IMG/VR virus record: IMGVR_UViG_3300034155_000027
Coordinates: 32,001-96,000 of that record
Strand: one strand, 5' to 3'
Source: a virus
Lineage: Duplodnaviria > Caudoviricetes
DNA length: 64,000 nucleotides
Made by a program: the position numbers and the translations under genes. The notes under the pieces were generated by a model. It worked only from the letters and a program-made list of their open reading frames with translations. It searched no databases and was not told the origin of the DNA. Below are positions 15,960 to 60,644 of the stretch, in pieces (the stretch's first letter is position 1; every line of letters begins with the position of its first letter).

Positions 15960-16072
15960 TTAAAATCCTCTAAAACTTATAAGTATCAATTGTTATGTTG
16001 TACTATTGATATTTTAGCTCTTTCTAAACTATACTTTAATATGCTATTATTCCTAAATTTGTTACCAAAGAA

Positions 16073-16879
16073 TTAAATATTTTCTATTTGATCTAATATA
16101 GAAATTGTTTGGTTTATCATTAAATTTGGATCTGTAATATCCATTGACCCAATAACCCCAAAATCTACACAAATATTAATTCTTTCAATTACCCCATCTA
16201 TAGGAATTAATCGTCTCCATTCTGTTCTAATATCTACAGATACAGTAGCTTTATATAATTTATCTTGTTGACGATCTTCGCTTTCTGATATTCCACCCAT
16301 ACTTGGTTGACCAGACTTTACTAAAATTCCTGCTTTCCTTAAACTTTCAAACCTAATATCAGCAAATAAAAGCATTATTATACTAACCAAATTATCACGA
16401 TCAAAAATATCTCTAGAAATTATATCGATAGATATTGTACCTTCCCACGCACCTGCTAAATCAATATATTTTGGTATAAAATATTCTTTTTCGTTTCCAT
16501 ATCCATCAATTACTAATTGCTTTTCATATTCTACAACTTCTTTATTTCTATTAAACCCAATTGGTACAGATTTAGCAGATGTCATTTTTACTAATACTGC
16601 AGGATAATATATTGCATCAAATCTAAAAGCCTCACCAATAAATATACGTGTTGTTGAATCATCATTATACCCAGCACCTAAAGGAAGATCTGTATGATCT
16701 GGAACCTTTGGATATCCCCATTCATCACATGTATATTTATAATATGAATCTTTACTAAATTCTTCTCTTAACATCCCAATGATTAATTCTTTAGGATAGG
16801 ACATCAGAGTGTTTTGTACCACATTATAAATTTGATACAAATCTGTTCTGACAATATTTCCTGTTGCAGGAGTAGTCAT
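16073..16879 (-). CDS. Tail terminator / neck completion protein
   Basis: Immediately upstream of sheath; YPAVLV..GTISIDIISR..RDNL pattern. Confidence 0.55.
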   Translation of the reverse strand: MTTPATGNIVRTDLYQIYNVVQNTLMSYPKELIIGMLREEFSKDSYYKYTCDEWGYPKVPDHTDLPLGAGYNDDSTTRIFIGEAFRFDAIYYPAVLVKMTSAKSVPIGFNRNKEVVEYEKQLVIDGYGNEKEYFIPKYIDLAGAWEGTISIDIISRDIFDRDNLVSIIMLLFADIRFESLRKAGILVKSGQPSMGGISESEDRQQDKLYKATVSVDIRTEWRRLIPIDGVIERINICVDFGVIGSMDITDPNLMINQTISILDQIENI

Positions 16880-16896
16880 AGAAAAATACTAGAAAA

Positions 16897-19800
16897 TTAG
16901 TATAAATATTTTAAAGTTGGTTTTAACATAGTTAATGAACCCGCTCCAGTTGGACCAATATAACAACCTGGTTTCAAAATATCTTCAGTTGTTCCTTGTT
17001 TTATCCTAATTGTTGCAGTATTATTTAATGGTTCATTTGGTCTTTCACCAGTATATAAAGCTCCGTTTCTATAGGTTAATCTAAAGTTACCATCAGTAGA
17101 AATATTATATCCTAATACTTTTCTATTATTAATTTCTAAAACCAGTTCAGGATATGCATTATTGGCTATTTGTCCTTCTAGTGTAGAACCTGTAACTACC
17201 CAATCTCCTACAACGGTTACAGTTATATCAAAAGACAATAAACTAGTGTGTTTTGGAATTAAAGAATAAACAGGAATAACAATTCCAACCGTACCATCAT
17301 TGGTTGCTCCAGAACCATCCCATGTCCAAATTATAGAGTCTGTATTTTCAATTCTGGCCAAACCTGTATTTGGTGTTCTGCAATATAATGAAATTCTTTC
17401 ATTGCCCACTGCTGAAATATTAGGATCAGAAGCGGGTGTAGGTGTTTCGTTAAACAATAATGATGATACTGGGAAAACTGTCGCCGAACATTCTGAAACT
17501 TGATTTATATTATGTGCAAAAGAAGAGTTTAAAGGATTCCAAATGCTACTTCTAATAACATTTAAATTAGTAAAATAACTACTTCCATAAGCATATCCAT
17601 CATATCCGTCATAACCATCATAAAGTTCATTTGACAATATAAAATGACTCATATTATTGCCATATACAGACGCATCAGTATTAGCAAAAATAAAATAAGA
17701 TATATTAGTTTCATCACGTTTGTGTAATGTATTACCAATAATTGTACTTGGCTGATCAGGATGGAATCCAAAGTTAAATATTCCATATCCATTTGTACTA
17801 ATATTATTTATTATATTTCCAGATATTGTTACACCACCCTCAGTATAAATATTGTATAAATATCCATTTACTAAACCGTCAATAATATTATCAGAACATA
17901 TTACGTTTGAAACATCAAACGAATTACTCACTGTTGTAATAGCTCTTTTATTGTTTATATCATCATATAATGGAATAAATTTATCAATTAAAATATCACT
18001 TCTTCTAGTAATAATATTTTTAGAAATAATTGTTTTTAATTGATCTACACCAGCTGTCGTTTCTGCTTTTAGATAAGAACAAGTATTTCCTTGAATTATA
18101 TGTTCTGTAGAATATCCATGTGTATCTGTAATGCTTAATCCATAAGTAAGATTTTCAGTATGCATTGTAGCTGTAATACCATCTAAAATTACTTCAGATA
18201 TATTGTTTTCAATTAATAATTTTCCACCATCAGTAAGATAACAAATATAACCAAATTTATTATTTGTAATTTTAATATTATCTATATTTACTTTATTAAC
18301 AGATAACCATTCTCCAGCCGTACCGTTTTCTTGAACCGAAGAAGCACTAATTAATAATCCTTGATTATTAATTGCAATATTTTCTGAAATTATTATGTTA
18401 GAAAATGTTGGAGATGTTAATGATGTGGGGTCTGTATTTGCAAAAGCAATTGCTAAACAATATGTACTGGTGCCTTCATCTATAAATGTGTTACCAAAGA
18501 ATTTTCCATTTTTAAATGTTGCATTTGGACTGTAAATTCCAATAAATGGAGGCCGTTGTATTCCAGAATAATAAAATGTAGTATTTTCTATTCCGAAATT
18601 TTCCATGCTTATAACAGAAGAAATTGCTATTGCTGCCCTTGATAATTCAACATTAAAAATATTTGAAATATGAGTATACCAAGGATCTTCTAGTGTATAA
18701 AACACTTTAGCATTTTTAATTTTCCAATTACCAGAAGCAAATATCAAACCTTCAACAATTTGAACATCATAAGTACCACCAATTAAATTTACTTCTTTGG
18801 TAAAAGACAAAGTGGTAGGTGAATCAATTTTAACATATTGTACTTGTACTTCATTAACACCATATTCATTTACCCAGTTCATTAATGAATCTGGTGTTTT
18901 AAATGAAGAATTATACCCATCTTCACTTTCAGCCATAGAAAAACTAAACGTGCTAATATCTTGATTATATACAAACCTACGAGCATCAGTTACTTCTAAT
19001 AAATTATATGTTATAGTTCCAAGTGAGTTTGCAACTTGAGCTTTAACTCTTGCAATAATTGTTAAATCTTTTCGTTTATCAACAATTTCTGCAAATGTTA
19101 ATGTTTCTACAAAATATTCATAATCAGCAGTAAAGAATTGTGATCCGTTATCTTTAATTATTGCTTTTAATTGTCCAGTCTCAGTAACACAAATAAAGAA
19201 CTCTAACACTGATGTTAAAGTTGTATATATTTCAGGAAGTTTAACATCAAAAGAATCCATAGCAACAAACGAACCATTTACTAATGCCATACCACCAGTA
19301 AATTCTAATACAGATTGTGTAATTCCAGTTTGTTCATACTCAAAACCACGCACAATTCCGTTTGTGTGTAAATACCTTTCTCCAGACTCAATAAATTGTA
19401 TTGCAGAATCAGTGAAATTTTCTTCTGATAAAGTACCAAACTCTCTTAAATCTGTAATTGATTGATATGTCATACTATCATGACTTACACCAGCTACAGT
19501 TAAATATTCATTATGATTTCGTAAACTTGGGAAAATTTCAATATCTACATATCTTGAAATACTATCTATTGGCAATAATATTGAACCAGGAGAATTTGCA
19601 TTTTCTCTAAATTCAATATCAATAAAGTTTACATATGTATTATCATAAAACCTAACAGGAAAATCTTTTCTTCCTCTAGTTAAAGGACCATTATTAATGG
19701 TTCCATTTCCAACAGGATCTCCAAGATATCCATCAAATTCTCCTGTAATTTGATTATAATCAGTTACAACAAATCTTGTAAAATATCTAAAATCATTTCC

Positions 19801-22140
19801 AGTACTTGCTCGTTCACCAACAAATTTAGAAGATACTTGTCTAATTCTCCAGCTATCTCCCATGGTGTCTAAATTAAAACCGCTTAATGATTGTTTAATC
19901 ATTCTGGCTCTTTCAACCGAGAAAGATTCTCCAATTTCATTAACAAATATTTCATGATATCTGTGGTAATCATTCATTGACCCAGCAAGATTTGTCATAT
20001 TAAACGGTACAGAATCATCTGAAAAATATACTTTTACTTCAGTTCCAATTCCAGATATTGCACCAACAGGATCTCCTAATCCGTGAACTCCATTTATTAC
20101 TGAAATAATTGTTTTACAGCTTCCACCACAAGGTGTTTCATAAGCTACACCACTAATAATAAATCTTCCGTAATCAGGAATAGTATTATTTAAATTATCA
20201 GTTGGTTGAACCACTATTGTTTTCCCAACCATTAATTCTTCAGCTGTTAAATCTAATAAAATAGTATATTCAACAGATGTAGTATTATAAACCACGTCAG
20301 TAACAACATTTGTTATAGTAGCATTCCAATATCCATCACCCTGTGTTAGATTTGGTTTAGCTAATAAATCTCTTCTACTACCATTAATTATAGAATTTCT
20401 ATCCCTAATAGGTGGAATTACTAATGTAGGATAATTTCCAGCAGCCATCGCTGTATCATAAGAACCTACAGGTGATGCAAATCCAGCTCTTGTTCCACCA
20501 AGTCCTAAAGCATCATATCCATCAGTAGAATCAGCAATTACATTATATTCATAAGACCCGGCAGTAAGAACCGCACCAGATCTTTGACCACTAATAATTG
20601 TAAACGCTGCACCATTATAATGATCTGCAAGCATTAATCCAAATTCACCATTTTGAGCAAATGCAATAAATCGATAATTATATCCAGCTCTTCTAAATTG
20701 TTTATTTGTTTCTTCTACTATTCTATCAAGATTATATTTACCAGGAGTTGACCCAAAGTTTCCAGTAATATCAATTGGTGGTAAATCATAATAAGAATGC
20801 TCAGGATCTCCATTAACATATAATCTTAACCATAAATTATAATGGTTTAAATCTATTTTGTTTGGATCAAATCCTAAACCTACTACTGCAGCACCTCTTG
20901 GATTTCCAAGAATTACACTTTGTGTAAAATACATTCCATCCGGAATTATATCTGGTAAAACACCAGCAGCAGCATATACACCCCATGTTTGATGATCAAA
21001 TCTAGCCCTATCAATTCTAGCATATCCATCACCAATTTGACTAACTAAATTATATGTATCAATTCTAACTGTCCAATCAGCCCCTGGAATAAATCTAATA
21101 GATTTAATTGGAAATATAGATTCAAGCCCATTTCCATAATTAATTCTAACAATATCTCCAATTTTAACATGAGCAAATTTAGCATCAAAAGAAAAATCAG
21201 AATTATCTTCTGGTAAGAATTTAATTATATCATCACCTATAGTTATATTATCCCTAGGTGCTAATTGACTAGGTTCAGCTAAATAAGCTTCAATTCTAGT
21301 TGGCGGAATTAAATTTATATTATATCCATCTAGATTTAAATCTTGTGCTCTAGCTGTTCTTGGAATTCCATTAGAATTTAAAATAGCACGATCAATTCCT
21401 GTAGAAATTGTTTCTCTAGTATCTATACAATCTAAGGCTTCTTGTACATTTTCTAAATCAGATGGTAAAGATAAGAAATTAGTAGCGTCTACAGTAATTG
21501 CAGTAGCTGGATGTGCATATGTAATTAAGTTTTGATGATCTACTAATTCATTATTTATTGCCAATAATGCATCTGCTAACTGAGTAGCAGAACGAATATT
21601 TCCATCTTTATCAAGTAAACCAGTCCAAGTATAAGTATCTCTAATGTCTGTTGGAATATTGTTTAAATCTATTTGACTTACAACATGTCTGGCAAGAGTT
21701 GTATTATCAGTTAATGTTTCACCACCAGATATATGTATCAATAAATCAGATTTTGTTTCAATTGCTAAATCTGTAATTATTTCTACTTGTCCATCTAAAT
21801 CTGTAAGTGATGTATTTAAATCTGCTGTTGAATAATCCAGGTCAAGTTTAAATTCTTTAATTCCAGCATTATTAGCAATTTGAGCATCATAAATTGGTAA
21901 AGTAACCAATCCAACAGAAGATAAGGCTTCAGAATTTATTGTACCATCTGCATTGATAGATACAGCAATTCTAGATCCTAAACTTGTTTTAGAACCTTGT
22001 GGATTTAATCCTATAGTTTTTTCAATTGCAAATACAGCTTCTCTGAGCTGATTAATTGACATGGTTCCGAATTCAGATAAATTATCATCAATTCTAACTA
22101 TAGTTTTATCATTGTCAACTTGGCCTGGATATACAGTCAT
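16897..22140 (-). CDS. Large virion fibre/appendage protein with C-terminal beta-helix
   Basis: HxAxxI..VQEAL fibre motif, many I-x-x-N rungs near the C-terminus, 8 DGY motifs. Start taken at MTVYP. Confidence 0.6.
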   Translation of the reverse strand: MTVYPGQVDNDKTIVRIDDNLSEFGTMSINQLREAVFAIEKTIGLNPQGSKTSLGSRIAVSINADGTINSEALSSVGLVTLPIYDAQIANNAGIKEFKLDLDYSTADLNTSLTDLDGQVEIITDLAIETKSDLLIHISGGETLTDNTTLARHVVSQIDLNNIPTDIRDTYTWTGLLDKDGNIRSATQLADALLAINNELVDHQNLITYAHPATAITVDATNFLSLPSDLENVQEALDCIDTRETISTGIDRAILNSNGIPRTARAQDLNLDGYNINLIPPTRIEAYLAEPSQLAPRDNITIGDDIIKFLPEDNSDFSFDAKFAHVKIGDIVRINYGNGLESIFPIKSIRFIPGADWTVRIDTYNLVSQIGDGYARIDRARFDHQTWGVYAAAGVLPDIIPDGMYFTQSVILGNPRGAAVVGLGFDPNKIDLNHYNLWLRLYVNGDPEHSYYDLPPIDITGNFGSTPGKYNLDRIVEETNKQFRRAGYNYRFIAFAQNGEFGLMLADHYNGAAFTIISGQRSGAVLTAGSYEYNVIADSTDGYDALGLGGTRAGFASPVGSYDTAMAAGNYPTLVIPPIRDRNSIINGSRRDLLAKPNLTQGDGYWNATITNVVTDVVYNTTSVEYTILLDLTAEELMVGKTIVVQPTDNLNNTIPDYGRFIISGVAYETPCGGSCKTIISVINGVHGLGDPVGAISGIGTEVKVYFSDDSVPFNMTNLAGSMNDYHRYHEIFVNEIGESFSVERARMIKQSLSGFNLDTMGDSWRIRQVSSKFVGERASTGNDFRYFTRFVVTDYNQITGEFDGYLGDPVGNGTINNGPLTRGRKDFPVRFYDNTYVNFIDIEFRENANSPGSILLPIDSISRYVDIEIFPSLRNHNEYLTVAGVSHDSMTYQSITDLREFGTLSEENFTDSAIQFIESGERYLHTNGIVRGFEYEQTGITQSVLEFTGGMALVNGSFVAMDSFDVKLPEIYTTLTSVLEFFICVTETGQLKAIIKDNGSQFFTADYEYFVETLTFAEIVDKRKDLTIIARVKAQVANSLGTITYNLLEVTDARRFVYNQDISTFSFSMAESEDGYNSSFKTPDSLMNWVNEYGVNEVQVQYVKIDSPTTLSFTKEVNLIGGTYDVQIVEGLIFASGNWKIKNAKVFYTLEDPWYTHISNIFNVELSRAAIAISSVISMENFGIENTTFYYSGIQRPPFIGIYSPNATFKNGKFFGNTFIDEGTSTYCLAIAFANTDPTSLTSPTFSNIIISENIAINNQGLLISASSVQENGTAGEWLSVNKVNIDNIKITNNKFGYICYLTDGGKLLIENNISEVILDGITATMHTENLTYGLSITDTHGYSTEHIIQGNTCSYLKAETTAGVDQLKTIISKNIITRRSDILIDKFIPLYDDINNKRAITTVSNSFDVSNVICSDNIIDGLVNGYLYNIYTEGGVTISGNIINNISTNGYGIFNFGFHPDQPSTIIGNTLHKRDETNISYFIFANTDASVYGNNMSHFILSNELYDGYDGYDGYAYGSSYFTNLNVIRSSIWNPLNSSFAHNINQVSECSATVFPVSSLLFNETPTPASDPNISAVGNERISLYCRTPNTGLARIENTDSIIWTWDGSGATNDGTVGIVIPVYSLIPKHTSLLSFDITVTVVGDWVVTGSTLEGQIANNAYPELVLEINNRKVLGYNISTDGNFRLTYRNGALYTGERPNEPLNNTATIRIKQGTTEDILKPGCYIGPTGAGSLTMLKPTLKYLY

Positions 22141-22175
22141 TATTATTCCCAATATAAAAGGATTATTACTACTTA

Positions 22176-22694: not shown

Positions 22695-25600
22695 TTACGG
22701 AGTAATGTCAAATAATCCATAGTTTTCAGCTGATACAGTCCAATCAGTTATATCTCCATTAATAATATTACCTAAAGAAGATATATCAAACCAATTTCCA
22801 AAAATTGCTCCAGGACCATGTAACCCTATAATATTAATAGGAGTTAATACGCTTGGTACTGTATTTGAATGAAATCCATTTCCAGTAATTAATGTTCCAT
22901 ATTTTAATGGTTCTAAAACTAAGAAAGATCTTGATAATGCCCCTTTATAAAGCCAGTTTGTTAAAATATTATTTCCACTAATATTAGCTACAGATGTTTT
23001 TATATCTAATACTGCCATATTTTCTGTAACAAAATCAACTGATTCGCCAACAATTGCACTTCCAGTGGTACTATGAGTTATAGTATTGTTGTGTATGTGT
23101 AAATTTGCATATGTAAAATCAGCACTTGAATTATCTATTTGTACAGCTGCTTGAATTCCAATATTTACTGGTAATCCAGAGTCATCAGTTATATAAATTA
23201 AATCATTATTATCAAATTTTACACTCCAACCAGGAGCATTAAGTTGGAACAATCCAATCTTTGTTAAAGATGTAATCCATGTTGTTCTAGCTGGTCTTGC
23301 TACTTTATTATAATATCCAATAATTCTATTATTAGCAATATTTAAAGTAGAAAATGGCGCATATCCTTCATATCCATCCTCTGAATTATATTCAGAACCA
23401 GTTGCTTGATCTATTCTAATTCCTCCTGCTGGTGGTAAATCTATAACAAATGCTGTTGCTACTGGAATTGGAGAATTTAAATAATGATGAATATCATTTC
23501 CAATTACTTGAAACATTGTTCCTAAAGAATTAGATGAATTTCCAAGAGTTTCTGTAATGTGTAATGGTAATGCTCCTATAAATGTATTATTTATAATAGA
23601 TAAAGATCCTTCAGCAATTAATGTACAAGCAGCTATTGGGTTTGTTAATCTGTATAATTGATCTGGGCCTGATATTTTGCTATTTTTTACAATTAACAAA
23701 TCATCAGATTTAATTTCTACATATCTAAATACATTACTATATAAAGAACTATCAATTGCAGTATACCCATCAACTCCACAATTTACAACTATATTATCAA
23801 CTAATACTTTACTGGTTAAATTACCAATATTAATATATTTATAACCATTATTGTATAATGATTGGTAATTTAATATTCTAGAACCAGTTCCAATTGTATT
23901 TTTATATGGATCAAATAAACAATTGGTTAATTGTATTTCTCCTTCAAATGCACTTTGCATTAGTGCATATCCATATCCTGTAAATTCACAACAATTTATT
24001 ATTGATGTTTCATCATTTTGAACAACCAAACTAACTAAGTTTGGAAATGTTCCATCTTGATGGAAATAACAATCTTCTATAATTGATTTATTATCATGTT
24101 CAACATATACTGTACAATTTATAAAAATAACATTTTTAAATGTTGTATATTCTTGAACTCCTGTTATTTTTGAAGAAATTCTTTGAGGATTATTAGTAGA
24201 TTGGAACTCAACGTTTGTAGCTATACCAACATAGTTTTCATATACACCACTACTATTAATTGGTATATTTGAGTTTAATAATATCCTAATCGATCTTCCA
24301 GAAGCAATTTCTCTAGCTGTAGTATTTCCTAATAATTTTGGAATATTTAACTGAGTGTTTACAGTATATTCACCAGGATTAATAACAATTACTTGTTCTG
24401 TTCTACTGTTAGAGTAATTGGTTGTTCTATCAATTAATGTATTTACAATTTCTAAAGCAGATGTTCCTGTAAAATCTCCAGTAGAACTAACCCCATCACC
24501 AATTGTTATTTGCCAAGGAGTGCTATTTACAACACCCCACTGATTACCAGAATCAATTAATCGATATGCCCATTTTGTTGTTCTTGTATCATATATCCAT
24601 CTTTCTCTAGCTGCAGCATATTGAGCTTCAGAACTAGAAATTATATTTGGCCCACCTTTATTTCCTATTAAACTTACAAATGCACCTTCTGTTTCTACTG
24701 TTGTGCTTAAATTTAAAAAGTTTCCTGGATATAAAGAGTTTGGTGAAACAGCAATATGATAATTATTGTTTATAAATAATTTTCCAAGAGTTGCTTTAAT
24801 AAAACCTTGATTAGCCTCTATACTATAAGTTCTAACCTTACAATTTTCGATTTTTAATTCTGCATAATCAGGTCTTAAAGAATATAAAAAGCTTACACCA
24901 ATACCAACAGCATCTATAAAACATTGTTTCATTTGTAACATAGTATGAGCTGTATTTGGTGTATCGCCAGTCCAAGTAGCAGTAGCTACTGCATATGGTG
25001 TTACAGCAGTCCCAGTATATTTGCCAACTAAAGTAACATTTTCTAATAATACTTCAGAACCTGGTTGTAATAATATAATAGGAGAAATTGGAGATGGTGT
25101 AGTTCCTCCAAAATTATCAAAAACTGTTAAATTCCACATACGACTCATTTTTGTGGAAAAATTAGTTTCGGTAACTCCATCTCCAATTAATTCACGATCT
25201 TCAGCTCTACTAAAATTAAAAGCAGGACAAATTCTTGTATCAATTCTTGTTCCACCAGCTTCTCCCCAAATAGTAAATCCTTTTGGTATAATTACTGTAT
25301 GTTGTAATATATAATCACCAGATTTTACAACAATAATTCCGCCTTTATCTTTTAATCTGGGATGATTAAAAGCCCACAAAAAAGCTTCATATAAATCTCT
25401 TTGAGGTGAAGAGTCTTCTGCTCTATATCCATCGCCAATAGTAACAAAACCTTGACCCATTCCAAAAGCCATTAACTCTAATGTTTGTTGCACATCAGGG
25501 GCTGGATATAGAACTAATGGAAGATCCATATCAATATGTCTAGCGGTATGTCGATGCATAGTACCATCAACATGACCAAGAAAATGAGTAGTAATTTGTT

Positions 25601-25784
25601 CTAATACTGTTTGTACTTCTGTTCCGGTAAATGGAGCAGATAAAAGTGGAGACATATCAATATGATTTGCTACATGTCTCCAATCACCACCAGTAACGTG
25701 AGCAATAAAATCTTGTTTATGAGTGGCTGAATACCCACCTTCTCTAATACGTCCTGATCCTATATATCTAGTTCTTGTGACCAT
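22695..25784 (-). CDS. Tailspike-like protein with tandem pectin-lyase-type beta-helices
   Basis: Two TIGDG..(K/P)G(D/E)Y entries (GGIIVVKSGDY; IVINPGEY); N-terminal RHxAxHIDM..VQxxLE repeats. Confidence 0.65.
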   Translation of the reverse strand: MVTRTRYIGSGRIREGGYSATHKQDFIAHVTGGDWRHVANHIDMSPLLSAPFTGTEVQTVLEQITTHFLGHVDGTMHRHTARHIDMDLPLVLYPAPDVQQTLELMAFGMGQGFVTIGDGYRAEDSSPQRDLYEAFLWAFNHPRLKDKGGIIVVKSGDYILQHTVIIPKGFTIWGEAGGTRIDTRICPAFNFSRAEDRELIGDGVTETNFSTKMSRMWNLTVFDNFGGTTPSPISPIILLQPGSEVLLENVTLVGKYTGTAVTPYAVATATWTGDTPNTAHTMLQMKQCFIDAVGIGVSFLYSLRPDYAELKIENCKVRTYSIEANQGFIKATLGKLFINNNYHIAVSPNSLYPGNFLNLSTTVETEGAFVSLIGNKGGPNIISSSEAQYAAARERWIYDTRTTKWAYRLIDSGNQWGVVNSTPWQITIGDGVSSTGDFTGTSALEIVNTLIDRTTNYSNSRTEQVIVINPGEYTVNTQLNIPKLLGNTTAREIASGRSIRILLNSNIPINSSGVYENYVGIATNVEFQSTNNPQRISSKITGVQEYTTFKNVIFINCTVYVEHDNKSIIEDCYFHQDGTFPNLVSLVVQNDETSIINCCEFTGYGYALMQSAFEGEIQLTNCLFDPYKNTIGTGSRILNYQSLYNNGYKYINIGNLTSKVLVDNIVVNCGVDGYTAIDSSLYSNVFRYVEIKSDDLLIVKNSKISGPDQLYRLTNPIAACTLIAEGSLSIINNTFIGALPLHITETLGNSSNSLGTMFQVIGNDIHHYLNSPIPVATAFVIDLPPAGGIRIDQATGSEYNSEDGYEGYAPFSTLNIANNRIIGYYNKVARPARTTWITSLTKIGLFQLNAPGWSVKFDNNDLIYITDDSGLPVNIGIQAAVQIDNSSADFTYANLHIHNNTITHSTTGSAIVGESVDFVTENMAVLDIKTSVANISGNNILTNWLYKGALSRSFLVLEPLKYGTLITGNGFHSNTVPSVLTPINIIGLHGPGAIFGNWFDISSLGNIINGDITDWTVSAENYGLFDITP

Positions 25785-25851
25785 ACCCAAATACAAGAAT
25801 AGTATTGGTATTATGATTGATTTATGTTTTTACCAAAGAATTTAATTTATT

Positions 25852-29849: not shown

Positions 29850-29944
29850 AAAAACCTTTTTATAAAATGGAATAATTAATAATACTATTATATAACTATA
29901 TTATTATAATGCTATAATATTAGAATTATTTCGATGCTTTTTTA

Positions 29945-35740: not shown

Positions 35741-35788
35741 TAATTCTTTGGTAAAAACAATTGATATTATATTGTTACCAAAGAATTA
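35741..35788. repeat. Inverted pair of the TTACCAAAGAA motif (14-bp arms)
   Basis: taattctttggtaa...ttaccaaagaatta. Confidence 0.85.
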
Positions 35789-44763: not shown

Positions 44764-44785
44764 AAAAGTTTCTTTGGTAAAAATA

Positions 44786-46819: not shown

Positions 46820-46971
46820 TAAGAAAACTCCTTCATTAATCCTATATATCACTTAAAATTAGTAGATAACACCAAAAGGAACAGAATCGATATTTGCAGG
46901 CTGATATGGTAAGAATCCTTATTCTTTGGTAACAACATATTATTTTAGATAAAAAGCAGTAACATTTACAT

Positions 46972-49192: not shown

Positions 49193-49234
49193 ATTTTGTA
49201 TTTTTATCAAAGAATTGGATTTGTAAAAAAAAAA

Positions 49235-50188
49235 TTATTGGTGTTTTCTAACATATTTATCTTTAAAATATTCTTTTACAATTTGATATTTTTCAAATTT
49301 TCTATTAAGATAAATTGTAGAGTTTTTATACAACCAATCAAGAAATATTAAACAATCTTCATGTCGTAAAATACTTAAATCTGAAACATTTTTAAGTTTT
49401 TTTGTTTGGGCTAATATTGGTGTAATATTAAGTGTTGTTTGTAAATAACACTTAATTTCTTCAAGAAATCTAGAATAACCAGTTAATATAACTCTTAATT
49501 TATTTCCTTTAAAATTAATACATCCATCTCCGTCATATAAACCTCTGAAAAAATGTGACATTAAATGTTCTGGAATTGAAACGGGCATTGATATTTTAAA
49601 AGTTTTTGCTGGAACACATCCATATTCAATAAGTTTCTTTTTCAATTTAGAGCTCCATATTAAAAAAGTAACATATTTTCCTTCTTTTTCATATATTAAA
49701 TGCTTAAATCCATAAAATATATTAGAAAACAATTCTAATATATGTATATCTTTATTATGAAGACAAATTTTAATTTCAGCGCTTTTTGAATGTACATTTC
49801 CGTCAGCAAACATAAACCCAAGAAAATATGCTTTTTCTTGAGTGTCAATAATATCTAAAAATGATTCATTTATACTGTATTTTCTATTAAATTTTTCAGC
49901 ACCTTTTAAATCTATATTGTTTCTTTTTAGTATTCTACAAATAGTTGTAGGACAAATGTTTAATTTTTCTGCAATTTTTTCAGATGATAAATTGTTTTTA
50001 ATATATAAGTCGATAATTTCTTTTTCAACTATTTCTTTTGTTTTAATTGAATGTGATTCTATTCCTGATTTTTTAAGAATTCTTCTAACTTGTGTTGCTG
50101 ATATTCCTACTATGTCACCAACTGTTTTGGAAGATTTTCCTAAATTATATAATCTAATTATTTCTTTAGTTTTTTCGTCTTTTATCAT
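49235..50188 (-). CDS. Free-standing LAGLIDADG homing endonuclease with N-terminal HTH repeats
   Basis: AYFLGFMFADG and FFRGLYDGDG motifs; two HTH-like repeats. Start uncertain (50188-50251). Confidence 0.9.
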   Translation of the reverse strand: MIKDEKTKEIIRLYNLGKSSKTVGDIVGISATQVRRILKKSGIESHSIKTKEIVEKEIIDLYIKNNLSSEKIAEKLNICPTTICRILKRNNIDLKGAEKFNRKYSINESFLDIIDTQEKAYFLGFMFADGNVHSKSAEIKICLHNKDIHILELFSNIFYGFKHLIYEKEGKYVTFLIWSSKLKKKLIEYGCVPAKTFKISMPVSIPEHLMSHFFRGLYDGDGCINFKGNKLRVILTGYSRFLEEIKCYLQTTLNITPILAQTKKLKNVSDLSILRHEDCLIFLDWLYKNSTIYLNRKFEKYQIVKEYFKDKYVRKHQ

Positions 50189-50253
50189 AGTAATTTGGTT
50201 TCTATAACTGTTTGCAAAAACAACCATATCACATATGGAAAAAACTGTCAATA

Positions 50254-50324: not shown

Positions 50325-51335
50325 TTATCCTACGAGAGTACTCTTTCGAGAAGCAGCAACACCACGTGGGTTAACAATACCAATACCAATTTCTTCGCTT
50401 ACAACCCAGCCTAATTTTAGTTGCTTAGGCTCGTCGGCCGGAATAACCTCAATATCACATTTAATTGGCATAACGCCAACGAACTCAGGATCTGCAGCAC
50501 CGTAAACTGTTCCCGGAGGAACAATCTTAGAAACCATGATATCCGCGCCCCAAATGTGACCGTATAAACCAGTTTGAAGAATTTCTCTTTGTGTAACCGG
50601 ATCAATCTCACCACCACCGGGTCCTTGTCCACCACCAGAAGCCCAGTTTAGAATATCGTTGAATTCATTGATATTCATTAAGAATTTAGTTGTAACTAGG
50701 TCCCAACGATCAATTTGAACCTTAATTTCACTAAGGTCTCGTTTAAGTAAACCACCATCAGAAATATCTTGGATAGTATTTTCAACGCTAGATGCTGCGT
50801 CGATAGCTGCAAACACGTTAGCATCTTCCTGAGCCATTAGTTCTTGACGAGCTTTCTGAACAGCACGGTCAATAACATTGAATCTTCGACGACGAACTTC
50901 TGAAATCCTTACAGTCGGATTGGAGTACAATTCGAAAGTAGGAATAACAACTCTATCACCGAATACACGACTTTCTCCACCGGTTCCATTACTGGAAATA
51001 ACGGTAGCAGCAACATCAATATCACGCTCATACTTAGGATCAACACCTTGTGCTAAGGCATCAATTACAAGTAGACGTCTACAAATTCCCTGATAATCCA
51101 AGTTACGACGAATTGGGTTGGCCATAGCCTGGGCTAAGGCTAATTTCCCTTCTTGGGTCATAATAGCGCGCGCGATAAGTTCGTCGCGTTTGTCATCATT
51201 TAAGGACGGTTGACCAGCAAGAGCACTATTTGAAGGCTGTCCTTCTTCAAGAATAGCGGCATATTTAACTAAAGTATTAAGCGCATCTTTTACAGATGTG
51301 GCGTTCATTTCGCCTGTTGAACTGAAAAAACTCAT
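50325..51335 (-). CDS. Major capsid protein (HK97 fold)
   Basis: LAQAMANPIRRNLDY..FELYSNP..EDANVF..GHIWGADI..EEIGIGIVNPRGV; AAGGAG RBS before MSFFS; strongly biased codon use. Confidence 0.85.
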   Translation of the reverse strand: MSFFSSTGEMNATSVKDALNTLVKYAAILEEGQPSNSALAGQPSLNDDKRDELIARAIMTQEGKLALAQAMANPIRRNLDYQGICRRLLVIDALAQGVDPKYERDIDVAATVISSNGTGGESRVFGDRVVIPTFELYSNPTVRISEVRRRRFNVIDRAVQKARQELMAQEDANVFAAIDAASSVENTIQDISDGGLLKRDLSEIKVQIDRWDLVTTKFLMNINEFNDILNWASGGGQGPGGGEIDPVTQREILQTGLYGHIWGADIMVSKIVPPGTVYGAADPEFVGVMPIKCDIEVIPADEPKQLKLGWVVSEEIGIGIVNPRGVAASRKSTLVG

Positions 51336-51380
51336 TCGTATCTCCTTTTTAGTATCAAAACCACCGAAATACATCAGCGT

Positions 51381-52477: not shown

Positions 52478-52518
52478 ATGTTATTTTTCTTTAGTTGTTA
52501 CCAAAGAATCTTTTTATT

Positions 52519-53740: not shown

Positions 53741-54808
53741 TTAGGTACCTTTGCTTTGGTTAATGGTCTTATATACATCGCCAATAAAAAGCGCTAATAT
53801 TTCGTCTCTAGATTTAAATGGATCTGGAATTGACCATTGCACTTGTCCAGGATTCCAATTTTGTGTAATTCTTTTTATCGCATCCCAAAAAGTTGGTGTT
53901 CTAAGAATTATGTCTTTATATTCGTACAAATCAGGATATGAAGCATAAATCCATTTTAAAACCCTCTCATGTGGTTTCTCATTTTCTAAATTTTCTATCC
54001 ATAAATCACCAGGATTGTTTTTAAATATATGAGACCCTGCTCCAGTAGGTTTTGGCCCAAATAATATTACTGGCTTTATAGATTGTTGTTCTGGTGTATT
54101 TGTTTTATCTTTTGATCCAAGCCCTAAAGCGCCTGCAGCCACACCACCAACAGCTAATAAACCAGCTGAAAGTAATACTGTTTTAAGAAACCATACTAAA
54201 ATTCCTACAATTAAACTAGATCCTCTTCTTTTACCAAAGAAACTAAACATTCTTATTAAAGGATTAGAGTTTTGAGGTATAAACGGTTGTGCTTTCCATG
54301 ACCTAGAAATTTCTCCATCTGCTTCTTTTAACATTCCTTTAGAATATAATTCTCTTAATGGAGATAATAAATCTTCAGATGATGTTGCTTCTATTGGTTC
54401 ATCAGATAAATTAGGAACAGCAGCTTTAGCTATATTATTAATTTGATTTGCACTGACTGGTTGACCGGCCTGAATTGAAGGTAAAATTGCACTAACAATA
54501 GTTTGATAAATTGAATAAATATCAAAACCAAATAATTGAGCGGCTGTAACTAAAATACCTAAAATTGGATGTAATCTAAAAAATATTGCAGGTACTAAAA
54601 AATCAACAACAGTTCTTGCAGCGCCACCATCTTCTGAACTATGTATTTGACCACCAACAAATTGTTTAATCGAATCTCCAATTCCTCCTAAAATAGATCC
54701 TAAATCAAATGCTTGTTTTGTTAAACCTATATCATTTGATTCTGAAAGAATTTTAAATGTTCTTTCAATTAAAAAAGAATCTGCAACATATTGAATATCT
54801 CCTTGCAT
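53741..54808 (-). CDS. Putative internal head/ejection membrane protein
   Basis: KQA and KEA motifs; two long hydrophobic G/A-rich segments. Confidence 0.5.
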   Translation of the reverse strand: MQGDIQYVADSFLIERTFKILSESNDIGLTKQAFDLGSILGGIGDSIKQFVGGQIHSSEDGGAARTVVDFLVPAIFFRLHPILGILVTAAQLFGFDIYSIYQTIVSAILPSIQAGQPVSANQINNIAKAAVPNLSDEPIEATSSEDLLSPLRELYSKGMLKEADGEISRSWKAQPFIPQNSNPLIRMFSFFGKRRGSSLIVGILVWFLKTVLLSAGLLAVGGVAAGALGLGSKDKTNTPEQQSIKPVILFGPKPTGAGSHIFKNNPGDLWIENLENEKPHERVLKWIYASYPDLYEYKDIILRTPTFWDAIKRITQNWNPGQVQWSIPDPFKSRDEILALFIGDVYKTINQSKGT

Positions 54809-54831: not shown

Positions 54832-56460
54832 TTATGTGCCCTGTAGTTTATCTAAAGCTCTTCCAAGAGACGCCCCAGATCTTGATATAATTGAACGAAT
54901 ATTATCTTGCCATTCAACAGACATACGTTGTTGTTGTCTAACTACATCTGCACTTGTTTTTGTTCTATATTGATATGCCCAATTTCTATACATAGAAGAT
55001 AATACATCACCAATTAAACTTGCATATGCTCTAAAAGACTTAAGCGCAGTTGATTTATCTCCACTAATATTATTTAAAGCAATACTTATCCATTTTCCGT
55101 TTTGGAAATCTTCCATATCTATGTTTGGTAAAGTTCCATTTTGTGACATTGATCTTAATTGATTTAAGGAATCATCACCACTTTCGTCTATTGGGAACTT
55201 CACAATATCAGATTCAAGTCTCATAAATGGTTTAAGAGGTCCATTTAATATATTTGAATAATCTTTATTACTAGATATTGTTTCAGCATTTGAACTTGTA
55301 TCAACAGGTCCTGAACGCCTTCTAGCAGCACCAGGACCAGAAGCAGCATCATTCATTGCTTTATATAAAACATGAGATGTAACGACTGGGGTTTTTTCTT
55401 GCCCAGCATTTCTTAAAATTTGCTCAACCTTATCTCTGATATTATTCCAAAGATCTGAAATATTTCTAACTCCAGCCATATACTCTTCAGCATTTTTTAT
55501 ATCCTGATCAGGATTTTTATTTTCTTCTAATTGTGCATGTAAAGCATTGGCTCTTTCTGCAAACCATTGAATTATATCATCAATTTCATTTATACAATGT
55601 CCTTTAGGTCTTTTTGTTATTGTTGGTTGTTGTGCTAATTTAAAAATAGATTCTGATAAAATAATATCTGCAAGTTTTTGTAAAATATCAGAATTTAATT
55701 CCGCTGTAGTAAGACTAGGAAGAGGTTCACAAACAGAACCCTCAAGAGTCATTGGATTAATTAATCTGAAAAAATTAACCAAATCTTTTAAATGGCCACC
55801 AGTAACTGCAATTTTACCTGGTTTCGTCATAGGGTTTTCTAATTGATCATATGTTAATTCTGGACCAACATGATCATATATAGTTCCAGAATTTGTTCTT
55901 TTAATATTCTTTACATTAGTTTCTAAACCTAAAACATTAAATATTTTAACTATATTATCAATATTTTCATTTGCAATAGTAATAATATCAGGATCTTTCA
56001 TTTCTTTATAAGGGCTTTCTCCCTCTCCTTCTTTTATTATTGAAGGAATTTTAAATTTTTCAGTAAATGATTTTAGATTTACCAAAGAAGCTTTTGTATT
56101 TTTACCCCAAATACCATCTTCTCTTTCTTTTTGTGGGCCTCCAGAAGTATTGCTGAATTTTGGAGCTAAATTACGTATTTCGTTTTCTGGCACTTGAAGT
56201 TTTATAGCTATTCTTTTAGCATTTATAGTTATTTTACTAGTAAGATCATTTAATAATTGCTGCATTGTCATAACAATGCCTTTTTGATCTTCTGGTAAAT
56301 CACCACCAATTTCTTTTGATCCTGGTTTATTGGATACTGTTTTACCAGATGGTTTTGCAACAGGAGATGTAGAAGACTTTCCTGAAGGTGTTCCAGATTT
56401 AGGATTTATTAAAGCAGGTCCACCTGCTGCTGTTTTAGTAATTTGTCCAAAATATTTCAT
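54832..56460 (-). CDS. Putative internal head protein with a peptidoglycan-binding-like motif
   Basis: MQQLL..EDGIWGKNTKASL (PG_binding_1-like). Confidence 0.45.
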   Translation of the reverse strand: MKYFGQITKTAAGGPALINPKSGTPSGKSSTSPVAKPSGKTVSNKPGSKEIGGDLPEDQKGIVMTMQQLLNDLTSKITINAKRIAIKLQVPENEIRNLAPKFSNTSGGPQKEREDGIWGKNTKASLVNLKSFTEKFKIPSIIKEGEGESPYKEMKDPDIITIANENIDNIVKIFNVLGLETNVKNIKRTNSGTIYDHVGPELTYDQLENPMTKPGKIAVTGGHLKDLVNFFRLINPMTLEGSVCEPLPSLTTAELNSDILQKLADIILSESIFKLAQQPTITKRPKGHCINEIDDIIQWFAERANALHAQLEENKNPDQDIKNAEEYMAGVRNISDLWNNIRDKVEQILRNAGQEKTPVVTSHVLYKAMNDAASGPGAARRRSGPVDTSSNAETISSNKDYSNILNGPLKPFMRLESDIVKFPIDESGDDSLNQLRSMSQNGTLPNIDMEDFQNGKWISIALNNISGDKSTALKSFRAYASLIGDVLSSMYRNWAYQYRTKTSADVVRQQQRMSVEWQDNIRSIISRSGASLGRALDKLQGT

Positions 56461-56461
56461 A

Positions 56462-58198
56462 TTATAAACCTTTAGGAAATTGTTCATTAGCCATATTTAT
56501 TGCAGAATTTGAAAAACTAATTACATCATCAATATTACTGAAATTATTTGCATTTAACCATGTATCAAATAAAGATTTTGGTTTCCCAACCATTCCTTTA
56601 ATTCCAATTCCATTTAATGATTTTATTAATTTATCAATATTATTTTTATTTTCACGAGACGAATTTACTTTATCACCATCTCTTAAATCTTGATAGTTTT
56701 TTATAGTATCTTCCCAAGATTTAGAGGCTTGTTTTAGTGCTTTTAATATTGATTCAGTATTAACCATTGGAACTTTAACTTTATCAGCTATTATTTGTTG
56801 TACTTGATTCAATGTTGAATAAAATTCATTTTGCCAATTTTTTAATTCAGAATATGTTTCAGGAGCACCAAGCCCAATTCCTATTGATAATAATGATTTG
56901 TTTTGCAATGTTATTGTATCATATGTATTTTTTATTTTTTGTATTACCCCAAACATAATATCTTTATTGATTTTTCCATTGTCATCTACTGCATCATCTG
57001 GAATTTTAATAACAAATTTACTAATACCTGATATTGTAATTAAACCTGTAGTTATTAAATTATTAATAGCTACCATACCACCAATTACACTTTGCATTAT
57101 ATACCAAAAAGCGGTTCTATATTTTTGTGCAAGCAAAATATCATATGATTGACCACTCTTAGGTGGCCATGTAAAACTAACATCACCATTATTTGATACA
57201 TTTGCAATTAAAAATGAATTAGGATTTATTATAATTTTTTGATTTGTTCTTACACTTTGAACTTCATTTGTTTTATCTACACCATTAACCAAAACTTTAT
57301 AAACACCAGTTACTTGGTTTTTATCTACTCCAAGCAAATCTGATAATTTGTAAATATTTGGTAAATTAGCAAATTTTCCATTTGTAATATATTGATGAAA
57401 AGACTGTCCTGTTTGATCATTAATATCTATTCCCAAACTTGTAATTTGCTCAAATAAATTAAGCGCTTTACTAGGATCTGCTCCACCAAGTGATATCCAT
57501 AACTCAACCCATTTCTTACTTTGTGGACCAACTAATTTTGCAAATGAAATTTGGGCTTTGTCAGCCACTGTGGATAAATCAGGAAATTTTGCTAAGTGTT
57601 CTTTTACAGGTTGGAAATCAATAATAAGATCGTTTTTTATCTGAGCAGGATAAGTATTTTCAGTTTCTTCATCGGAAATTTGACCCATTTTTATCCAGGA
57701 AGCAAATTCCGATATTGATGCTTCCTTAGGTAATTTTCCCGTTGGTTGTTTCCTTACTACTGCTAAAATTTTATCAGCCGCATCTTGTATAGTTTCAATT
57801 TCCCCCAAGTCTCCCATTCCATCAACCGGATTTTGTTCTAATCCTTTATGTGCAAAATCAAAAAAATCTTTATTTGTTTCCACTGTTACATTGTATAATT
57901 CACACTCTGCTGTTTTATACATCATAAGGTTTTTTTCAAGATCATCTGCTAATGTAACAAATCCTTTTCTTCGTATAGCATATGCTAATTTTGATACGTC
58001 TTGCACAAAATCATTTGTTGATACTGTATCAATTTCATCATTTATTGTTTTGTTTTGAGAAATTTGTTGTGCAGCAAGTTTAATTGTTTCTGATTCAGTT
58101 GGTTTAAAGAACCCTTTCTTTACAGCTCTTCGCTCCAGCTCACGATAAACTTCAGATGCATATAAATTATTTGTTGGTTTTGTAATTGGAGTTGTCAT
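56462..58198 (-). CDS. Putative internal head protein
   Basis: N-terminus paralogous to 52519-53739 (SEVYRELERRAVKKG; KLAYAIRRKGFVTLADDLE; DFAH). Confidence 0.5.
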   Translation of the reverse strand: MTTPITKPTNNLYASEVYRELERRAVKKGFFKPTESETIKLAAQQISQNKTINDEIDTVSTNDFVQDVSKLAYAIRRKGFVTLADDLEKNLMMYKTAECELYNVTVETNKDFFDFAHKGLEQNPVDGMGDLGEIETIQDAADKILAVVRKQPTGKLPKEASISEFASWIKMGQISDEETENTYPAQIKNDLIIDFQPVKEHLAKFPDLSTVADKAQISFAKLVGPQSKKWVELWISLGGADPSKALNLFEQITSLGIDINDQTGQSFHQYITNGKFANLPNIYKLSDLLGVDKNQVTGVYKVLVNGVDKTNEVQSVRTNQKIIINPNSFLIANVSNNGDVSFTWPPKSGQSYDILLAQKYRTAFWYIMQSVIGGMVAINNLITTGLITISGISKFVIKIPDDAVDDNGKINKDIMFGVIQKIKNTYDTITLQNKSLLSIGIGLGAPETYSELKNWQNEFYSTLNQVQQIIADKVKVPMVNTESILKALKQASKSWEDTIKNYQDLRDGDKVNSSRENKNNIDKLIKSLNGIGIKGMVGKPKSLFDTWLNANNFSNIDDVISFSNSAINMANEQFPKGL

Positions 58199-58525: not shown

Positions 58526-58648
58526 TGGAATTTCCCTTAAATTTAGTTATTAACAAAAACCTATTATTATACTGTCTTATGCAGTTAATTAAATTAACTT
58601 CTTTGGTAAAAACATTACCAAAAATTTGCTAAACCCCTAACGCGCTTT

Positions 58649-59421: not shown

Positions 59422-59898
59422 TTACAAAGTATTTAAATAAGTGCGTAATCCATCTTGATAATCACTTGACACATCAGAAATTAATGCATCAACAATAGCT
59501 GGCCAACTTTCTGCACCTGCCCAGCTTTCTCCTTTCCCACCACTTTTAACATATTTAGCAAAATTCTTTACATCAGCAGGAACCTGTGGATTTGTTTGAT
59601 ATGCATCACTTTGAATGTATCTATTAAAATCAGGACATATTTGTTGAAGTGCATTACCAATATTATGTTCTCCAGCTCCAACCGGATTTATATTTTTAGG
59701 ATCTGCAAATTGAGCAACTTTAATAACGGAATTATATGCTGCCGCCGCTGCTGTTTTTGCAATGTCTTTAATAGAAGGAGGTGCACTTCTATATTTTGTA
59801 CCGGCTACTTTTGTAACCTTAGCACTCATAATAGCTTTATAAGTTGAAACCGCTGCAATTTTTGCAGCTTCTTTTGCAATTTGTTGTCTTGTTGCCAT
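59422..59898 (-). CDS. Ala/Lys-rich putative internal head protein
   Basis: Duplicated IAK(E/T)AA..AA..Y..K(V)A unit. Confidence 0.6.
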   Translation of the reverse strand: MATRQQIAKEAAKIAAVSTYKAIMSAKVTKVAGTKYRSAPPSIKDIAKTAAAAAYNSVIKVAQFADPKNINPVGAGEHNIGNALQQICPDFNRYIQSDAYQTNPQVPADVKNFAKYVKSGGKGESWAGAESWPAIVDALISDVSSDYQDGLRTYLNTL

Positions 59899-59910
59899 TT
59901 TTAAATTCTC

Positions 59911-60138
59911 CTAATTTATCTTTCCGCCTGCTACGGAAATCATTACTCTTGTCACGTCTTTTGCCCTAGCAATTAAACCAGCTTTTTCAAATTTCTTTGC
60001 AGCTTCATTTAATTCTTCCATTGCCGCTAAAATAAGCTTTTCTTGCTGAGTGCTTTCTTGTATTTCTGCTGTATCAGTTGCTTTTTGCATTCCTTCAAAC
60101 AAATCTTTTTCGCATGAACCCTGTTTAAATAAACTCAT
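59911..60138 (-). CDS. Small head-region protein
   Basis: LNEAAKKFEKAGL..A motif. Confidence 0.6.
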   Translation of the reverse strand: MSLFKQGSCEKDLFEGMQKATDTAEIQESTQQEKLILAAMEELNEAAKKFEKAGLIARAKDVTRVMISVAGGKIN

Positions 60139-60644
60139 AAATTCTCCAAAATTTCGTTAGCCATATTTGATAAATCTAATGAATTTATAGATTTTTGAAG
60201 GATTTCTTCTCTTTCTCTAAAAGATCCAATTGAAAGAAGTTCTGGTCCAATTCCTATTCCAATATTTCTTTTAATAGAGCTTTCTAATATTTTTGGATCT
60301 AAACTGGCTTGTAAAAGAACAGAACCATCACCCTCTCCATAAATAGCACTCGAATATTGATAATTAATATCTATAGAGCCCGTATTTTTATCTACAATTG
60401 GTTTACTTAACGAAATATCAATTAATTCATCACCAGACGTAGCTCTTTTAATAATATTATTTACTTTACATGCTTCAGCTACTAAATCTATTTCACAAAA
60501 ATCAGATAATAAACTTGCGTTTTCTAAAAGATTTTTAGCTTTTTTTAGATGCAATACAGCTTCGTTTGTTACCAAAGAAGGTTTTAATTTATTTCCAAGT
60601 AGAAAAGCCATATTGTTTTCTAGTTGTGTTGCGAATTTATCCAT
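60135..60644 (-). CDS. Head-region protein
   Basis: LKKAKNLLENASL..IIKRA; ATGA coupling to the next gene. Confidence 0.6.
   Translation of the reverse strand: MDKFATQLENNMAFLLGNKLKPSLVTNEAVLHLKKAKNLLENASLLSDFCEIDLVAEACKVNNIIKRATSGDELIDISLSKPIVDKNTGSIDINYQYSSAIYGEGDGSVLLQASLDPKILESSIKRNIGIGIGPELLSIGSFREREEILQKSINSLDLSNMANEILENL

Follow-up and report, generated by a model that had tools for sequence, protein, structure and literature searches.

A dispersed 11-nucleotide word among phage structural genes

We analyzed a 64,000-nucleotide stretch of DNA (the window) that corresponds to bases 32001-96000 of a 131,454-bp viral contig of 31% GC (IMG/VR record IMGVR_UViG_3300034155_000027, here designated G000). 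Scattered through the window are 15 exact copies of an asymmetric 11-mer, TTACCAAAGAA, which we call the word. The copies lie on both strands, and both between and inside genes. Coordinates are in window numbering unless a contig name precedes them.

On the whole contig, 119 open reading frames (ORFs) were called, of which 107 are on the minus strand, and the coding share is 96%. The product of ORF 50325-51374(-) and the Bacillus phage G major head protein are 51% identical, and IMG/VR relatives of this ORF are found on contigs of up to 392-406 kb. CheckV puts the completeness of G000 at 25%. We therefore conclude that G000 represents about a quarter of a phage-G-like megaphage, namely the part with the structural genes. 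Collinearity extends over 273-392 kb of a relative, G002, with protein identities of ~50-70%. Two relatives recur in the comparisons below: G002, which carries the word and shares 83 proteins with G000, and G004, which shares 80 although it is word-less. Pfam gave matches for only a minority of the ORFs tried, and PHROGs had no match for any of the six large ORFs searched. The phage collection held no nucleotide match to the window DNA, and neither tRNA genes nor Rfam families were found in the window.

Given its dinucleotide composition, the window is expected to contain 0.11 copies of the word, and 100 dinucleotide shuffles never gave more than one. The whole contig contains 36 exact copies. 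One-mismatch copies number 9 in the window, and all 33 single-mismatch variants summed over G000 give only 18 copies, compared with the 36 exact ones, so each of the 11 positions is nearly invariant. An earlier inspection of the letters alone (the sequence-only reading) had proposed the 15 sites, and all of its coordinates and strands are exact. Its division into eight intergenic and seven in-ORF copies also holds, as do the peptides it listed for in-gene copies (FFGN, SLV(T), FTKE and FFGK). In the literature, the 11-mer was found only in unrelated primers and sequences, and a search on phage G promoters and motifs returned nothing relevant; neither this word nor a similar signal had, as far as we found, been described for phage-G-like phages.

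Location of the copies

Because most genes in this region are on the minus strand, plus-strand copies are antisense to genes. The first intergenic copy, 16062-16072(+), is of this kind; it is directly adjacent to the stop codon of ORF 16073-16879(-) and precedes the start of ORF 13485-15959(-) by 102 nucleotides. Another, 25830-25840(+), begins 11 nucleotides after the stop of ORF 25852-27996(-) and is 33 nucleotides before the start of ORF 22695-25796(-). No copy occurs between 26404 and 35744, an interval that includes a GC-rich block from which the word had been reported missing.

Two copies then form a divergent inverted pair whose arms are 20 nucleotides apart. The sense arm, 35744-35754(-), is 25 nucleotides before the ATG of ORF 35317-35718(-), and the other arm, 35775-35785(+), is 5 nucleotides after the stop of ORF 35791-36048(-). 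At a gene junction, 43360-43370(+) lies in the 3' end of ORF 43320-43673(-), 17 nucleotides before the start of ORF 43049-43342(-). The sense copy 44770-44780(-) occupies a 22-nucleotide gap and is only 6 nucleotides before the ATG of a class-V aminotransferase ORF, 43687-44763(-), which is too near for it to be the promoter of that gene. A further sense copy, 46922-46932(-), lies in the 119-nucleotide gap between ORFs 46972-47448(-) and 46082-46852(-). The copy at 52498-52508(+), in a 41-nucleotide gap ~1.1 kb upstream of the major capsid gene, is 10 nucleotides after a stop codon and 20 nucleotides before the next ATG. Last, 58599-58609(-) is a sense copy in a 123-nucleotide gap, and an imperfect inverted partner with two mismatches (TTACCAAAAAT, 58615-58625(+)) lies 5 nucleotides away.

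Two of the in-gene copies are in a 1751-aa ORF, 16897-22152(-). At 18491-18501(+), the sense strand reads TTC TTT GGT AAC (FFGN), and the copy at 18793-18803(-) is in sense orientation and reads TTT ACC AAA GAA (FTKE). The copy at 26394-26404(+), inside ORF 25852-27996(-), is read as T TCT TTG GTA A and encodes SLV, as do 56079-56089(+), inside ORF 54832-56487(-), and 60569-60579(+), which is inside ORF 60135-60644(-), 65 nucleotides from the start of that ORF. The copy at 54231-54241(+), inside ORF 53741-54808(-), reads TTC TTT GGT AAA (FFGK).

The near-matches that had been noted at 990, 49204 and 58615 are all present. The one-mismatch copy at 49204-49214(+) (TTATCAAAGAA) is in the gap just after ORF 49235-50251(-). 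At 990-1000(+), inside ORF 476-1495(-), the sequence is TTACCAAAAGA; with two mismatches, it is within the range expected by chance. Another one-mismatch copy, TTACCAAATAA at 44432-44442(+), lies inside the aminotransferase ORF at a place where G002 has an exact 10-nucleotide form of the word; the codons are CTC TTT GGT AAC in G002 and TTA TTT GGT AAT in G000.

Anatomy and spacing of the element

The word is the rigid core of an asymmetric element of ~25 bp that consists of a T-rich stretch, TTACCAAAGAA, two or three unspecified nucleotides, and TTTATT. In G000, conservation of these flanks follows the direction of the word and not that of the gene. The upstream flank is a T-rich run, usually TGTTT or TTG, and the TTTATT of the downstream flank often appears as TTAGATTTATT. 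Copies deep inside genes have the same flanks in weaker form. Sequence shared among copies fades beyond ~25 bp, and the core has no self-complementarity. We also note that TACCAAAGAATTA fits 8 of the 9 specified positions of WATCAANNNNTTR, which we take to be the consensus for IHF.

G000 has three inverted pairs, with spacers of 5, 20 and 36 nucleotides. This variable spacing and the asymmetry of the word do not support a likeness to parS or matS, which had been suggested for it, or to Noc-type sites, since all of these are palindromes bound by dimers. A hairpin terminator was also considered and rejected: single copies have no hairpin, and only the 35744/35775 pair folds as RNA (-11.7 kcal/mol). 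Spacing along G000 is random, with a coefficient of variation of 1.02 compared with 0.96 for random placement, and the strand of successive copies changes irregularly (16 switches in 35 steps), with no strand switch point along the contig. These values rule out even spacing and regular strand alternation.

Distribution, dialects and bacterial genomes

Several other phage sequences carry the word. G001 (67.8 kb, 29% GC) has 20 exact copies, compared with 0 for a control word. G002 (392 kb, 43% GC) has 18 exact 11-mers and 41 copies of the 10-mer TTACCAAAGA, compared with 3.4 expected; 30 of these 41 are inside genes. Copies of the 10-mer number 19 in G008, 17 in G009 and 7 in G007, where controls give 0-1. 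Word-bearing genomes other than G000 (G001, G002 and G007-G009) span 29-45% GC. The word is not enriched in G003, G004, G005, G006 or phage G, and de novo k-mer searches of G004 and G005 revealed no substitute word. The word marks a subclade of phage-G-like megaphages and is lacking in equally close relatives.

We considered whether G001 is an unrelated phage that shares the word, and dropped this idea because its replication genes (a topoisomerase and SbcCD-like genes) are common to G005. It also has three IscB genes that match a remnant in the window. The likelier reading is that G001 comes from a related megaphage genome and represents a non-overlapping part of it.

A variant of the word is found in L037, a contig whose capsid protein is 90% identical to that of G000. 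L037 has no standard words and carries instead TTAACAAAGA, in which one letter is changed, at 5 copies in 11.4 kb compared with 0.10 expected. Two of these dialect sites are in gaps orthologous to word-bearing gaps of the window. One aligns with the copy at 52498, in the same orientation. The other, at L037 position 1509, is in the gap orthologous to that of 58599 and aligns with the imperfect partner at 58615. The word is present in some relatives and absent from others that are just as close, and in L037 one letter has changed in concert. Both facts point to a trans-acting reader, accessory to the subclade, that co-evolves with its sites.

Other candidate dialects were discarded. TTACCAGA, in L071, L031 and others, is doubtful because its shared site, ~1 kb upstream of the capsid gene, codes for SSGKK. 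The enrichment of AATTCTTAAAAA in G004 is coding bias, and repeats in L067 and L076 are tandem protein repeats.

We also searched bacterial DNA. Among 185,579 bacterial species genomes, a 22-mer extended form of the word was hit once in each of two, at chance level and without enrichment, and metagenome scans for the extended form returned single hits only, mostly coding or chance. The sequence-only reading had likened the word to uptake sequences. Membership in that class is not supported by these searches, since it calls for a competent host genome that carries the word.

These searches also bear on the hypothesis that the phage makes use of a host protein whose recognition sequence is the word, which might be a Chi-like signal for AddAB/RecBCD or the site of a host regulator, with dialects corresponding to different hosts. 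The word does have the statistics of Chi and uptake sequences, in that it is sharp, asymmetric, dispersed and subject to high turnover, and phages carry sites for host proteins, for example the Spo0J and Spo0A sites in phi29. However, phages whose GC contents range from 29% to 45%, and which probably have different hosts, use the same word, whereas relatives of similar GC content do without it. Also, known Chi sequences are G-rich and 5-8 nucleotides long, are recognized on single strands and have a polarity with respect to DNA ends, whereas the word has 11 nucleotides and is A/T-rich. Apart from the chance-level hits, moreover, the 22-mer form is absent from the bacterial genomes searched. 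We consider this hypothesis improbable.

G002 also has a clustered regularly interspaced short palindromic repeat (CRISPR) array at G002:C1:91790-92620 (L095), with 12 repeats of 36-37 nucleotides, each ending in GTTGAAAC, and 11 spacers. Ten spacers are GC-rich and have no match in the phage genomes G000, G001, G002, G004 and G005. The spacer at the degenerate-repeat end is A/T-rich and ends in TGTTACCAAAGAAA, like a protospacer at intergenic word copies of low-GC relatives. This spacer may reflect targeting of a rival phage.

Selection at the DNA level and turnover of sites

In-gene copies were compared with a synonymous shuffle that keeps every protein sequence and the codon usage of each gene. 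ORFs of G000 contain 17 copies, compared with 0.72 expected; those of G001 contain 11, compared with 0.90; and those of G002 contain 31 copies of the 10-mer, compared with 2.8. The in-gene excess is thus ~10- to 24-fold across the three genomes. The enrichment on which the sequence-only reading relied therefore survives both dinucleotide and synonymous shuffles.

Alignments with relatives give a more mixed picture of in-gene conservation, which had been put forward as a check. Relatives that share the peptide and lack the word at that place use other codons, as in TTT ACC AAA GAA (G000) versus TTT ACA AAA GAA (G004), or TCT TTG GTA (G000) versus TCT CTT GTA (G002). The positions of sites, however, are little kept: only 1 of 10 aligned in-gene sites is shared by G000 and G002, namely, 26394 (G002:325186), where G004 has EFV. 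More often than not, the peptide at a word site is lineage-specific. At 18491, orthologs have FTNN (G002) and FYG- (G004), so FFGN is specific to the lineage of G000, and at 18793 they have FNNF and NLSA. Orthologs have LFSA and FMGK at 54231, and ALV and ALK at 56079. SLV is encoded at ten in-gene copies of G000, nine of which can be aligned to at least one ortholog; orthologs at these sites mostly have ILT, TLI, ALV, IIV and similar peptides.

Most in-gene copies arose by substitution at aligned codons. At G000:C1:125109 (93109 in window numbering), a copy lies in a 12-nucleotide in-frame insertion, GCT TCT TTG GTA (ASLV), that is missing in G002 and G004, and one G002 copy was made by an inserted ACC codon. 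Short insertions may be one route by which new copies arise.

Gaps between genes show a related pattern. We compared junctions whose flanking genes are adjacent orthologs in word-less G004. Seven word-bearing junctions average 78.9 nucleotides in G000 versus 12.6 in G004, whereas 43 word-free junctions average 18.4 versus 13.2. For example, the junction that holds the 16062 copy is 113 nucleotides in G000 versus 31 in G004, and the one that holds the 25830 copy is 55 versus 8. Junctions of G002 are also short where G002 has no word.

These expansions could suggest a selfish mini-element, that is, a short cassette copied into junctions, or else a scar left by exchange of gene modules. Relative to G004 and G002, word-bearing junctions are indeed insertions, as is the 12-nucleotide in-gene copy just described, and IS200/IS605-type nuclease genes (IscB and TnpB) occur in these phages. 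Yet only ~25 bp are shared among copies, with no terminal repeats, hairpin or target duplication, the prevalence of substitution inside genes is not what a cassette would produce, and IscB copies do not adjoin the word. The core is exact across genomes with only 50-70% protein identity. Between G000 and G002, 12 of 41 junctions at synteny breakpoints bear the word versus 5 of 16 conserved junctions, an equal frequency that rules out a role at synteny breakpoints or recombination junctions. A repetitive extragenic palindromic (REP) sequence or miniature inverted-repeat transposable element (MITE) was rejected because the word lacks self-complementarity and terminal repeats, shares only ~25 bp and has 17 of 36 G000 copies inside ORFs. 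We regard a mobile or recombinational origin as highly improbable.

Taken as a whole, the word is selected at the DNA level for its copy number in the genome, and not for the site of each copy.

A possible self-tag read by a phage factor

An all-or-none core between two bend-prone T-tracts, indifference to orientation, selection that is strong enough to change amino acids, add codons and part coupled genes, fast turnover at high count and private dialects are what is expected of a word whose effect depends on copy number, as with Chi or uptake sequences. The pattern is unlike that of regulatory sites, which belong to particular genes. Our preferred hypothesis, which we advance tentatively and as possible rather than probable, is that the word serves as a clade-private self-tag on duplex DNA, that selection favors its copy number, and that a phage factor encoded by the subclade reads it. 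The earlier proposal of a word on DNA that is read by a factor of the phage lineage fits the sharpness, in-gene selection, dialect and turnover, and binding by a phage protein is the part of it that we infer.

Under this hypothesis, a trans-acting factor encoded by the subclade would read the word on duplex DNA in either orientation, and would co-evolve with it, hence the dialect. The sites might nucleate or halt a protein that acts along the whole phage chromosome. By analogy with Chi, they could attenuate a nuclease or translocase; alternatively, they could seed a phage-specific DNA-coating or compacting protein with a role like that of SPO1 TF1 or phi29 p6. Copies would gather between genes because this is the cheapest location. 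A narrower version, in which a phage nuclease, translocase or coating protein uses a private word, with dialects, to tell its own 0.4-0.5 Mb chromosome from DNA of the host or of rival phages, is conceivable but doubtful.

The word has likenesses to known systems. Uptake signal sequences (USS) of Pasteurellaceae and DNA uptake sequences (DUS) of Neisseriaceae also have a sharp asymmetric core of 9-12 bp, A/T-rich flanks and both orientations. They, too, have a few favored in-gene frames, some intergenic inverted pairs, lineage dialects and a premium on copy number over position. The difference is that USS and DUS belong to competent bacteria, whereas a lytic-type megaphage carries the word and uptake machinery plays no part. 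Chi, as the signal for RecBCD/AddAB, resembles the word in being asymmetric, in that every position counts, in occurring every few kb, in an effect that would scale with the number of copies, and in marking self. The word differs in having a length outside the known Chi range and in its A/T-rich composition with flanking T-tracts.

Knowledge of giant phages comes almost entirely from metagenomes and does not extend to how half-megabase chromosomes are managed and protected. The word is short, exact and experimentally tractable, and selection has multiplied it at a cost in protein sequence and compactness. The dialect switch and the presence or absence of the word in similar genomes point to an accessory system made up of a reader plus the word. 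With the reader in hand, self-recognition of phage DNA, or else a new global regulator, would become accessible to experimental tests. If the narrower version of our hypothesis is true, phages would have in the word their own counterpart of Chi or of uptake sequences, for which the pressure for copies is strong enough to rewrite proteins and to separate coupled genes. The word is also a practical marker that links scattered megaphage contigs to one lineage.

Search for the reader, and transcriptional readings

Two sets of observations weigh against a self-tag with a phage-encoded reader: those on candidate proteins and those on the placement of copies relative to genes. As to the former, no candidate binding protein was established among the genes tested. 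HU-like proteins (PF00216) do not track the word: word-less G005 has them, and none was detected in G002, which bears it. A LAGLIDADG/helix-turn-helix family and sigma factors were also examined as readers, and both occur in word-less genomes too. The only co-occurring candidate found is a protein family of ~120 aa whose predicted model has no recognizable DNA-binding fold. The reader may also be encoded by the host.

The ~120-aa family (114-129 aa; MSRLPKKKSR..., with N-terminus MSRLPKKKSRPI..DGRKFRW) is present in G001 (L022:1989-2351), G002 (L101:13268-13657) and G007 (L146), and is absent from five word-less genomes. Its neighborhood is conserved and contains genes for an NAD kinase, a YpsA/DprA-like protein and a glycosyltransferase. 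In the gene that precedes the family gene, LPKK is encoded by the word itself in every case; in the first codons of the family gene, the word is not always kept. The structural model (pLDDT 84) had no fold match in the PDB (Foldseek E >0.4; best VIA Z 4.4). As a potential reader, this protein is a weak lead seen in few genomes.

The LAGLIDADG family is represented in the window by ORF 49235-50251(-), which has a LAGLIDADG_3 domain and two N-terminal helix-turn-helix domains and lies directly after the terminator of the capsid gene. Relatives have one to three copies elsewhere, as expected of a homing endonuclease.

With regard to placement, 19 copies of G000 touch its 5.4 kb of intergenic DNA (3.54 per kb), and 17 are wholly inside ORFs (0.135 per kb). 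Density is thus 26 times higher between genes than inside them, a bias that a regulatory site would show and that is stronger than in Chi and much stronger than in uptake sequences. The flanks of intergenic copies are conserved, and these copies hug gene ends, at 0-11 nucleotides after a stop or 6-12 nucleotides before an ATG. Antisense intergenic copies mostly start 0-11 nucleotides after the upstream stop, and the flank often supplies its TAA; sense intergenic copies are found 6-119 nucleotides before the next ATG. Orientation in G000 is biased as well: 26 plus-strand copies run antisense to genes, compared with 10 sense copies on the minus strand. The 26:10 bias may stem from coding cost, because the reverse complement has a TAA stop in one frame. 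The intergenic bias and the hugging of gene ends nevertheless keep a transcriptional reading alive as a serious rival.

One form of this rival is a set of genome-wide operators, at which a monomeric phage regulator bound at gene boundaries would block or license host RNA polymerase and so time the expression of structural genes, like L5 stoperators. The stoperators of Cluster A mycobacteriophages, which are bound by L5 gp71, are >20 asymmetric sites of ~13 bp spread over the genome, many of them in short gaps at stop and start codons, with subcluster variants (PMC9283540). The word resembles them in being sharply defined and asymmetric, with ~20-40 sites per contig (36 copies in the 131 kb of G000, with a non-palindromic core), of which 19 of 36 in G000 touch short gaps. 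Some sites are in clusters and in inverted pairs at 5, 20 and 36 nucleotides, the dialect of the close relative L037 recalls the immunity specificities seen among Cluster A phages, and both G000 and L037 have kept a site in each of two gaps upstream of head genes. However, L5-type stoperators have a single orientation that strictly follows the direction of transcription (PMC9283540), whereas both orientations of the word are common and the majority varies by genome: the ratio of antisense to sense copies is 26:10 in G000, 7:13 in G001 and 13:18 for in-ORF copies of G002. Stoperators also belong to temperate phages with an identified repressor, and no repressor candidate was found here, where G000 represents ~25% of a genome. 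The word has many in-gene copies, including 30 of 41 in G002, and its site positions are poorly kept between word-bearing genomes. Operators therefore seem to us rather unlikely.

Another form is a compact promoter. The reverse complement, TTCTTTGGTAA plus AAA, gives an extended -10-like element, TG-n-TAAAAA, that could be used by host RNA polymerase with a phage sigma factor; copies on the opposite strand would then produce antisense RNA. In this orientation, 26 of the 36 G000 copies are co-directional with structural genes, and all 12 co-directional copies that are wholly intergenic leave at least 17 nucleotides before the next ATG. The layout of these gaps, which are expanded relative to G004, is a conserved element, a variable spacer, a ribosome site and an ATG. 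ORFs of the sigma-70 family occur in phage G and in the near-complete relatives G002 and G003. Single-element promoters are typically exact; an example is the T4 late promoters (TATAAATA), for which the phage uses host RNA polymerase with its own sigma factor, gp55. These promoters are likewise short, near-exact single elements in dozens of copies, mainly before structural genes.

The word differs from T4 late promoters in its mixed orientation, in the many copies too near a start codon and in that no sigma factor tracks it. If copies were promoters, 13 of 20 in G001 would fire antisense, and sense copies also exceed antisense ones in ORFs of G002. Co-directional copies in G002 are as little as 2-4 nucleotides from an ATG (11906, 68005 and 270217), two in G000 leave only 17-20 nucleotides, ribosome site included, and the forward word often ends 8-12 nucleotides before an ATG in G001 and G002. 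Copies 2-12 nucleotides from a start codon leave no room for a transcription start and a ribosome site. The hexamer lacks a T at -7, sigma factors are also found in word-less genomes, and a scan for the sigma-70-type consensus gave chance results near copies (96 found versus 100 expected). A phage RNA polymerase that would explain a T7-like exactness was not found: the beta' family (PF00623) had no match in G000-G003 or phage G, although control genomes matched. PF00940, for T7-like polymerases, had no match, but control genomes were silent too. The sequence-only reading's argument that both orientations speak against a promoter is thus borne out, and we consider promoters quite unlikely.

Other features of the window

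The structural module includes auxiliary genes in addition to the class-V aminotransferase ORF 43687-44763(-). A papain-family cysteine protease ORF, 37729-38604(+), lies within it on the opposite strand, and a 758-aa ORF, 39176-41452(-), has a GDSL lipase/acylhydrolase domain.

Next to the latter ORF, at 38949-39175(+), is a remnant of IscB (RRXRR, an OMEGA-type nuclease) that comprises 61 codons and ~40 nucleotides of upstream sequence. Its DNA is 84-88% identical to the 5' ends of the three full-length IscB genes of G001, which encode ~420 aa. This remnant shows that IS200/IS605-type elements move between these megaphages. A C-terminal fragment of TnpB (a Cas12f1-like TNB domain) is located at 29934-30329(+), beside a block of 44-53% GC at 30395-34584(-). 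The block contains two ORFs, of 517 and 878 aa, without a Pfam match and has zero copies of the word; these ORFs and their neighbors at 28015-29849 have no ortholog in G002.

A different short sequence is also overrepresented in the whole of G000. The 9-mer GATGGATAT, which encodes Asp-Gly-Tyr, occurs in 21 copies compared with ~3.6 expected, and ATGGTTATGG is similarly enriched in G004.

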